Shown here one piece after another: positions 37,953 through 41,428 of a stretch of DNA of 64,000 nt. Position 1 is the first letter of the stretch. The number at the start of each line of letters is the position of its first letter. The stretch is from positions 68,138,001 to 68,202,000 of the forward strand of contig NC_042998.1 in assembly GCF_006345805.1 (NCBI RefSeq), given 5' to 3'. Source of the DNA: Octopus sinensis (Eukaryota). Made by a program: the position numbers and the translations under genes. Under the pieces are notes generated by a model. That model searched no databases. It saw only the letters and a program-made list of their open reading frames with translations, and was not told where the DNA came from.

Positions 37953-38446
37953 CACACACACACACAAACACACACACGTGCATCTGTGTGTATGATGTCT
38001 GTGTGTGTCTGTGTATGTGTGTGCGTCTGTGTGTGTGTGCATGTTCTCTGTGTGTCTGCGTTTCTGTGTATCTATGTGTGTTTGTGTTCATGTGTGTATT
38101 TTACTGACAGGTGAATACTTATCGAAAGCTGTGTCTTTTTTTTAATTCTTTTAATCCTATAAAATGACATTGCAGAGAGACGGTTTATTTTTTATCAAAA
38201 TCCATTAAGCCTCGCCTAAAAGCCTGCAACATGTTACAGATCCCTATAACCGATTTAGAAGAAAAGGAATGTAATATAGTTTTAACAGGGAACCTTGGTC
38301 ACAGGGATTGGTTCAACTTGAGCTAATCTTTTTTCTTTATTTTTACAGGATTCTATTTATATTTATATTTCTCTCCCTAAAACTGTAAGATGGAGGGGGA
38401 ATATTGTTGTCATTGTTGGGGTAGTTGTTGCTAATATTGATTATTA

Positions 38447-38788
38447 AGGCGGCGAGCTAGCAGAATCTTTAGCACGCCGGGTGAAATGCTTAGCGGTATT
38501 TCGTCTGCCACTCCGTTCTGAGTTCAAATTCCGCCGAGGTCGACTTTACCTTTTATACTCTCAGGATCGATAAAAATGAGTACCAGTTGATTACTAGGGT
38601 CGATGTAATCGACTTATTCCCCAAAGTTGCTGCCCATGTGTGTGGTAAGTAGCTTGCTTACGAACCACATGGTTCCGGGTTCAGTCCTACTGCGTGGCTC
38701 CTTGGGCAAGTGTCTTCTACTATAGCTTCTACTACAAAGCCTTGTGAGTGGATTTGGTTGACGGAAACTGAAAGAAGCACGTCGTATG

Positions 38789-38865
<77 letters not shown>

Positions 38866-39135
38866 GTTTGTGTGTCTGTGTTTGCCCCCCCCCCCAAAAA
38901 AAAACATCGCTTGACAACTGATGCTGGTGTGCTTACGTACCCGTAACTTAGCGGTTCGGCAAAAAAGAGACCGATAGAATAAGTACTAGGCTTACAATGA
39001 ATAAGTCCTGGGGTCGACTTTGCCTTTCATTCTTTAAAGGTCAATAAAATTAAGAATTAGTTGAACACTGGGGTTGATGTAATCGACTTACCCCTCTCCC
39101 GAAATTGCTGGCCTTGTGCCAAAATTTGAAGCCAT
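38447..39135 (+). mobile_element. Chimeric SINE stack: family A / family B / family A 3' half
   Basis: A at 38447-38630, B at 38635-39012, then a switch at the shared ggggtcga into an A 3' half. Confidence 0.8.
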
Positions 39136-39192
39136 TCTTGTTGTTTATATTATTTACATTCGACGGATATTTGTCCTCATCTTGTTTGTTGT

Positions 39193-39240
39193 TAACACAA
39201 CGTTTCAGCTGATATACCCTCCAGCCTTCATCAGGTGTCT
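39193..39240 (-). ncRNA. Type I hammerhead ribozyme motif (minimal stem III)
   Basis: Minus strand: GACAC-CTGATGA-aGGCTGG-agggtata-TCAGCT-GAA-ACGT-T-GTGTT. Stem I GACAC/GTGTT, intact core, stem II, palindromic stem III and a GUU cleavage triplet. Confidence 0.75.
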
Positions 39241-39500
39241 TGGGGAAATTTCGAACCTGGGTTTTCATTCCTAAAGTATTTTTCGATGTTATTATTATTA
39301 TTACTATAATTCAGGTCACTGCCTGGAATCGAACTCGGAATCTTGTGGTTAGTAGCCAGCGCTCTTAACCACTACGCCATATACCCCGTGGGCATATAAC
39401 ATCGAAAAATAATGTGCATAATTCCTCATCTCTTAAATATAGAACAGCATTGTTGTTGTTGTTGTTTAATATGTTTCTTTCTTCTACTTTTGTCTTTCAG

Positions 39501-39736
39501 GTGAAATGGAACGTCTCCAGAAATTCTGGTTAGCAGGAGCCTGTAAGAAGCGGGACCAAACTGGTGAATCTAGCAACTCTCTGGGAATTCTCAACTTTAC
39601 GTCTGCTTTCATTTTATTGGCTTGCGGCATGGCACTGGGCAGCATTCTATTGGTAGTTGAACATTTCTATTTCCGATTTGGACGGAAAACTTTACAGAAA
39701 TGGGATAAATGTGGTTGCTGCGGATTAGTGAGCTTG
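39501..39736 (+). CDS. GRIN2: GluN2-type exon, end of S2, M4 and juxtamembrane C-tail
   Basis: Acceptor tttgtctttcAG, donor GTAAGT at 39737. (G)EMERLQKFWLAGACKKRDQTGESSNSLGILNFTSAFILLACGMALGSILLVVEHFYFRFGRKTLQKWDKCGCCGLVSL contains WL.G.C and a hydrophobic M4 followed by EH. Confidence 0.95.
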
Positions 39737-39795
39737 GTAAGTAGATTATGTCATATATTACATTAGACTAGGCTATGTTATGTTATATCACATAT

Positions 39796-39997
39796 AAGGC
39801 GGTGAGCTGGCAGAAACGCTAGCACGCCGGGCGAAATGCTTAGCGGTATTTCGTCTGCCGTTACGTTCTGAGTTCAAATTCCGCCAAGGTCGACTTTGCT
39901 CTTCATCATTTCGGCATCGATAAATAAAGTACCAGTTACGCACTGGGGTCGATATAATCGACTTAATCCGTTTGTCTGTCCTTGTTTGTCCCCTCTG
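39796..39997 (+). mobile_element. SINE family A, 60 nt downstream of the M4 exon
   Basis: Near-consensus family A head and core. Confidence 0.85.
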
Positions 39998-40240
39998 TGA
40001 CTTCTTTGGATAACTTCCAGAAATTACTGACCTGGCAGCGCCACTCAGAAGACACTCCTGGTTCGAGATAAACTCTGTAGGTATGAAACTGTTCGAAATG
40101 CAAGCAAAGCAACAAAACCGTTCTATACTCATACAGTATCCAAACATCTCTGACTTGTAGAGCTATGTCGAACAGCTATTGTCCCCGGCGGGATTTGAAT
40201 TGTTGTTCTTGTTGGAAGGAATTTGAAAGCATTTATTTGC
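39998..40240 (+). mobile_element. Old diverged Tx1/L1-type fragment
   Basis: gataacttccagaaattactgacctggcag...gttcgagataaactctgtagg...ctctgacttgtagagctatgtcgaacagctattgtc aligns by eye to the DNFQRSLAWQ...VRDKLYR...SDLWACVEQLLS region of the element at 9901. Confidence 0.6.
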
Positions 40241-41132: not shown

Positions 41133-41428
41133 ATTCCTCCTATTCATTTCTGCTGAAGAGCGTAGGCTCGAAACGTAAAATACTTTTTCATTTTCCCGAG
41201 TATTAAACTAATACACTTGCTTGTCGTTCATACACCTGCCTTCGTCTTTTGTTTTTCCATAAGTCGTTTTTAGGTTATGATTTCTTTAGGTAGACACTTA
41301 AACACTAGGGCCTCTTAATACCAAATTGGTGCAGTATAATAGTATCCTAAGTCGTAAATTTGAAAGTGGTATATGCAGTAGCTACTCATGTACATTCATT
41401 AACTTGCATAAGTCAATATGAGCGACAT

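Follow-up and report, generated by a model that had tools for sequence, protein, structure and literature searches.

The insertion described here lies in a stretch of 64,000 nucleotides from Octopus sinensis (assembly GCF_006345805.1, contig NC_042998.1, positions 68,138,001 to 68,202,000), which we call the window and to which all coordinates refer. An exon encoding the M4 region of a GluN2-like NMDA receptor gene occupies 39501..39736 on the plus strand, as placed by protein matches and an acceptor AG; 76 of 106 candidates matched it at E<=1e-8, and the named ones are mostly molluscan NMDA 2A/2B-like proteins. These matches support the earlier placement of the element antisense to the receptor gene, in the intron before the M4 exon, and the insertion ends 55 nt before that exon. 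We claim no effect of the insertion on the host receptor gene. Other abundant tRNA-SINE-like repeats lie at 38445-38620, 39796-39999, 39012-39156 and 38639-39021, and in many more places in the window.

Compared with family copies, the sequence at 39147..39445 is a solo pseudo-LTR of a Penelope-like element (PLE), with two arms inverted head to head, and this copy is decayed. It is flanked by a 13-bp target-site duplication (39133..39145 on the left, with one mismatch to the right copy at 39448..39460), and its left end was placed by eye, accurate to a few bases. The main arm, on the minus strand, runs from the head to a short end. It comprises a tRNA-like head (39314..39386, position +1 at 39386) that contains an A box (39369..39379) and a B box (39325..39336) and is a putative internal promoter for RNA polymerase III (Pol III); a (TAA)n spacer (about 39289..39311) in the 5' UTR, whose length differs widely between family copies; and the start of a PLE open reading frame (ORF), placed by frame comparison, with an ATG at 39268 and about 40 codons (39147..39268). 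Within this ORF start sits a minimal type I hammerhead ribozyme (39194..39239), and the segment terminates at a 'short' reverse transcriptase (RT) start site. The second, inverted arm (39390..39445, plus strand) passes from the first 8 nt of the head into a 16-bp piece (39396-39411) and on to a 'long' end, which includes the PLE tail of about 35 nt. The arms meet in a near-palindrome (39380..39397) that spans the short leader just upstream of +1, and the ORF-to-head junction of autonomous copies carries the same short palindrome.

Direct reading bears out the preliminary description in its placing of both boxes on the minus strand, the spacer, the type I hammerhead and the inverted 16-bp segment (39277-39292, recurring at 39396-39411). 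That repeat had been taken to bracket the head; its positions were right, but it is the relic of the second inverted arm. Other parts need revision: the element, put at about 250 nt, is longer than that and has two arms (39147-39445), and what was described as an A-rich tail codes for protein, being where the PLE ORF begins; the same frame runs on in another copy (L218).

The spacing of the head is tRNA-like, with the B-box core at +53. The type-2 promoter consensus is TRGCNNARYGG for the A box and GTTCRANNC for the B box, and both window boxes agree with it. Aligned with tRNAs of the same genome, heads of the family scored z 6.8-8.7 over shuffles (7.2 for the window copy), and the best matches were Arg-TCT or Ala-TGC, from a sample limited to 15 tRNAs of eight types. 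The family thus carries a tRNA-derived head with A and B boxes, as tRNA-derived SINEs do. ARAGORN called no tRNA in the window or in any of 30 family copies, and Rfam returned nothing at its gathering score in the whole window and neither a hammerhead nor a tRNA at E<=10 in 38400-40200. Both are silent because minimal hammerheads and SINE heads score below these models. Folding of two copies of the head gave no cloverleaf in either.

The hammerhead has helices I and II of 5 bp each, a bulged base between positions 9 and 10.1 and a palindromic 15-16 strand, and its predicted cut (GUU) falls between 39199 and 39198. Minimal hammerheads of PLEs are characterized, in the part of that paper available to us, by a base between 9 and 10.1, a G10.1-C11.1 pair and a palindromic 15.2-16.2 strand (PMC4209133), and the family fits this feature list. 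The window copy has G-U, not G-C, at pair 10.1-11.1, which is GC in 13, GU in 6 and unpaired in 6 of 25 family rows. Stem covariation, proposed earlier as a check, was examined in 11 pairs and revealed no compensatory change, with 90.4% of cells paired, not above shuffles; copies that decay neutrally should behave in this way, and the result speaks neither for nor against the fold. When two hammerhead copies were folded, helices I and II formed the best fold in one (z -2.15) and not in the window copy (z -0.57). Frame comparison places the hammerhead within the first codons of the PLE ORF, and the peptide that it encodes is kept at the N-terminus (amino acids 18-35) of the homologous protein P0003, which is 56% identical to the frame of copy L202 and is the only one of 22 long homologs in which a pattern search found the peptide. 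Judged by eye, the N-terminus of the homolog P0120 perhaps keeps it too. Dual coding therefore reaches beyond the window family.

Searching the same genome with the element gave 3,357 candidates, the best 40 of which were scored; all 40 span head to tail, the 39 others at 82-94% identity. Head and hammerhead co-occur in many copies, as had been anticipated, and are not together at this locus only. Exact 17-19-mer matches in the genome numbered 1,626 for the head junction, 9,734 for the hammerhead (17-mer) and 12,175 for the tail, and reversed-k-mer controls gave none. As the exact hammerhead 17-mer is held by 12 of 30 tail-anchored copies, its 9,734 matches imply about 24,000 hammerhead arms genome-wide, which is probably an underestimate. 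Part of the family sequence is present in sequencing runs of six organisms, with no RNA run among the matches listed for the family. Near-identical insertions with shared flanks at L034, L041, L042 and L043, on different contigs, are duplicated or redundant assembly.

The end of an RT-endonuclease frame was found upstream in two copies. Thirty ORF-end loci were fetched, of 40 scored from 2,503 candidates, and 28 of these lead into the head about 60 nt past the coding end (25 of 27 after four near-identical loci are merged); contigs joining ORF end to head were recovered in each of four sequencing runs examined, from four organisms. Chance nesting of head and hammerhead is ruled out by these loci and by the genome-wide co-occurrence. 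The unit immediately precedes the ORF at L240, L218 and L219, and the frame from the ATG at 39268 goes on for 390 amino acids in L218, at 48.5% identity to amino acids 18-393 of P0003. The order is head, (TAA)n, ATG, hammerhead, RT-endonuclease ORF, about 60 nt and the next head, in a unit of about 2.9 kb. The L202 frame of 551 amino acids has 1,665 homologs at E<=1e-20, and those listed carry PF00078 (RT) and PF26215, with PF01541 (GIY-YIG) also in 3 of 120 listed. This decayed frame itself has no Pfam match; P0003 and P0001 match RVT_1, and endonuclease-like motifs were recognized in the ORF by eye. As it is the longest unbroken frame among 150 scored, the family looks old. At L240 (oriented positions 480-860), an ORF end, head, hammerhead and next ORF follow one another in direct tandem, which means that some templates exceeded one unit in length.

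We are all but certain that we are dealing with the pseudo-LTR of an autonomous PLE. As in endonuclease-containing PLEs, a single ORF that encodes an RT and, C-terminally, a GIY-YIG endonuclease is linked to the repeat, and the pseudo-LTR follows the ORF and, in tandems, also precedes it, including the ORF start. Inverted arms, an optional tail of 30-40 nt at one end, a short target duplication and the PLE type of minimal hammerhead (with the G-U pair in the window copy) complete the likeness, and the general structure of PLEs agrees with this anatomy in the part of the published account available (PMC8557442). The linker in L202 is short and, by eye only, has no cysteine cluster, unlike the zinc-finger-like linker of Neptune/Nematis.

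Hammerhead copies were collected by exact patterns, and matches taken in order along one contig (C1) gave a positional sample of 85 loci and 96 arms, five duplicate loci being left out. Copies had been expected to be often tandem or inverted; inserts with both orientations are indeed common (48 of 85), but same-strand repeats are few (5 of 85). A non-LTR retrozyme was considered and rejected on this rarity and because, of 30 tail-anchored copies, just one begins close to the predicted cut site; tandem direct repeats with monomers bounded by that site, the retrozyme hallmark, were not found.

The preliminary description had read the unit as a separate non-autonomous SINE or retrozyme. Head and PLE-type hammerhead do travel together, in high copy and moved by a Penelope RT, but separateness does not hold, as the head belongs to the autonomous PLE and has no private variants. 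Thus, a tRNA-SINE or retrozyme lineage that borrows a Penelope RT appears very unlikely to us. Of the 85 inserts, 34 are short copies and 14 are linked to an ORF, short copies could also template more short copies, and the SINE-like hammerhead repeats of schistosomes, reported as Pol III-transcribed in the part of a review available (PMC6765202), provide a precedent. However, such a SINE should have a head that is absent from its partner element, and the head was found at 28 of the 30 ORF-end loci, the whole unit being part of the autonomous element. Additionally, when 67 heads linked to an ORF were compared with 94 others, in a set that pools biased and unbiased loci, variant frequencies were similar at all seven diagnostic sites (P 0.12-1.0); each of the two linked haplotypes is seen in the two classes, on few rows. 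The scarcity of tandem repeats also counts against a separate lineage.

The ends of copies bear on how they were made. Among 38 two-ended inserts, 35 combine a long end with a short one, and a target duplication score of at least 8 occurs in 21, against 2.8% of 600 mixed pairs. Of 36 position-sampled arms that reach the 5' edge of the head, 23 stop at -12..+6 of +1 and 13 continue into the ORF, so that 5' ends have a density of 0.047 per nt at the edge, but 0.005 within the body of the head and 0.0018 upstream (for the excess over the local rate, P ~1e-15). These rates exclude the (TAA)n interval, where 22 of the 96 arms end, some perhaps through a chaining limit. Automatic junction classes labelled several rows wrongly as autonomous, and counts from those classes were not used. 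The pile-up recurs in single-orientation inserts (10 of 17, P 5e-7) and, by eye, in a second sample (17 of 28 arms). Several arms begin exactly at +1 and many retain 5-9 nt of leader.

We lean towards an autonomous PLE with a Pol III-type head, two-site priming and cDNAs joined at the leader as the best explanation. Pol III would start a few bases upstream of tRNA position +1, and the PLE protein, probably as a dimer, would nick both target strands. Two cDNAs would then be primed within the ORF start, at sites some 35 nt from each other, and each would run off the 5' end of the RNA at the head, where the two could join at the leader palindrome or at microhomologies. The expected outcome would be inserts arranged head to head, in which a long end is paired with a short one and the duplication measures 8-14 bp. 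For the hammerhead, cutting is predicted to require a dimer or the assistance of protein, and the ribozyme would not be needed for producing head-to-head copies.

The same pile-up could arise in an ordinary truncated PLE whose inert head was captured long ago from a tRNA-SINE and which depends on Pol II or host read-through, copies ending at the head since its GC-rich palindrome favours stalling, self-priming or cDNA joining. We consider this unlikely. Palindromes at 5' ends and self-priming have been described for rotifer PLEs in the part of that report available (PMC3846280), many octopus junctions are centred on the palindrome, and the RNA-seq signal is only read-through-like. Since PLEs are known to have 5' palindromes and inverted junctions, a joining hotspot may account for some of the pile-up. 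Against an inert head, the 10 of 17 single-orientation inserts stop at the edge too, many with no leader palindrome remaining, and the 1,731 nt of ORF contain eight other palindromes of at least 5 bp (some overlapping, AT-richer), yet the 13 upstream ends are scattered. Such a head also leaves the intact A/B spacing and the absence of T4 runs unexplained. Processing of a longer Pol II transcript, with RNase P cutting a tRNA-like fold at +1 to yield short templates, would suit the arms that start exactly at +1, but it is contradicted by the many arms that keep 5-9 nt of leader and by a head that forms no cloverleaf (two of two copies; ARAGORN 0 of 30), and we give it almost no credence.

Returning to the Pol III-type head, the sense strand has no T4 run over the whole unit when column-majority positions are read. 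In the ORF of about 820 codons, none occurs where 2.8 (own codon use, P 0.034), 4.4 (P 0.004) or 5.1 (P 0.003) would be expected, a test that covers one sequence of about 2.8 kb. T4 runs number 2.7 per kb in eighteen LINE-like frames that were chosen by hand and have the same T content, and some A-rich LINE frames also have few; a second hammerhead repeat family, with an A box plus B box in 0 of 30 copies, abounds in T runs. A search based on P0003 returned no recognizable head-less PLE ORF as a control. In three RNA-seq runs (one study, one organism), no pile of starts or ends was seen at the head or cut site, strands were equal and 76-79% of reads ran into unlike sequence. Read depth rises twofold at the boundary of the head; this mirrors the ends of the copies in the genome, and we do not count it as promoter evidence. 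For circular RNA, the lack of ends at the cut site weighs little because this library type would likely miss such ends. None of the full-length copies among 30 RT-N-terminal loci starts exactly at the head, and L240 runs past it.

Taken from sequence features, Pol III transcription from the head is what we infer, and the short templates were somewhat probably made by Pol III. It is a bolder and doubtful proposition that the tRNA-derived head in the upstream pseudo-LTR might drive the whole RT-endonuclease message of about 2.9 kb by Pol III, through a body purged of T4 terminators, and that the same promoter might make a short, telomerase-RNA-like template copied tens of thousands of times.

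The closest known systems include PLEs of the Penelope/Poseidon clade such as the anole Poseidon element PAc, in which two RT starts, extension of both strands and the use of uncut RNA as template were seen in vitro, the ORF begins in the hammerhead and the two RT starts define the tail (PMC11167929). The octopus element shares with it an RT followed by a GIY-YIG-type endonuclease, an ORF start in the pseudo-LTR, a hammerhead over the first codons, two 3' ends with a 30-40-nt tail between them and, by analogy with PAc in vitro, a presumed uncut RNA template. The difference lies at the promoter position, where the octopus element has an A/B-box head and, in the part of that paper available, a pseudo-LTR promoter is assumed for PAc and no tRNA head is reported (PMC11167929). 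The octopus body free of T4 runs is a further feature to set against PAc. Rotifer Penelope elements likewise have inverted and solo pseudo-LTRs, palindromes at pseudo-LTR 5' ends, inverted junctions, an ORF start in the pseudo-LTR and short target duplications (8-10 bp), but their predicted promoter is of the TATA/Inr, Pol II type and the accessible text reports no tRNA head (PMC3846280), in contrast to the tRNA-type head in octopus.

Among non-autonomous systems, the Sm-alpha/Sj-alpha repeats of schistosomes also are short repeats in which a Pol III-type promoter precedes a hammerhead, but they are described as tandem, non-coding and freed by cleavage (PMC6765202), whereas in octopus the unit forms an autonomous PLE's terminal repeat together with its ORF start, and occurs mostly as inverted pairs. 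TRIMp3 elements (Cassandra, Helenus, Ajax) similarly have the promoter of a small-RNA gene inside a terminal repeat; all are non-autonomous LTR elements of at most 1.3 kb, unlike the autonomous unit of about 2.9 kb here, and the 2024 paper, in the part available, argues that their autonomous partners must use Pol II (PMC10886601). Metazoan non-LTR retrozymes resemble the family in carrying a type I hammerhead in a repeat of about 300 nt, and they differ in being tandem direct repeats that give rise to circular RNAs (PMC7229834); octopus tandems are 5 of 85, and starts lie off the cut site.

In the papers reached by our literature search, in the parts available and with Repbase and Dfam outside its scope, we found no autonomous PLE with a tRNA or Pol III head. 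Octopus SINEs were reportedly described by Ohshima and Okada in 1994. In the part of the literature available, OR2 is listed as a CORE SINE. A 2026 octopus repeat annotation includes 30 recently active Penelope families, with hammerheads unmentioned in the main text as available to us (PMC13282606), and its supplements may hold the window family. What is unusual is the tRNA-type head in the promoter position of a PLE, the PLE pseudo-LTR architecture itself being already known.

SINE-type Pol III heads are usually taken as the mark of short non-coding parasites. When a PLE carries such a head within its terminal repeat, the boundary between SINEs and autonomous elements becomes blurred, and a route opens for SINE-like repeats to arise in cis. 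In practice, about 24,000 arms may carry wrong SINE labels in annotation. Promoters and transcript ends of PLEs are poorly known. The octopus element provides a candidate promoter whose boxes can be mutated and whose start site is indicated by the ends of many copies, which makes Pol III-driven expression, cap-independent translation and two-ended priming directly testable.

Several further observations concern the spacer and a second repeat. At L024, L055, L068, L071 and others, the (TAA)n spacer has grown into long microsatellites, and the family may seed (TAA)n tracts genome-wide. At L053, L073 and L075, another non-LTR element lies directly at the spacer, downstream of the tract, which suggests that it targets (TAA)n. 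A second family of minimal-hammerhead repeats has two copies in the window, at 41147-41260 (plus strand) and 19995-19880 (minus strand), and 265 exact 22-mer matches genome-wide. It is T-rich with many T runs, and an A box plus B box was found upstream in none of 30 copies. One locus has a weak PLE-like RT match, and this family is probably the pseudo-LTR of another PLE clade; its copies usually end at (TA)n microsatellites.
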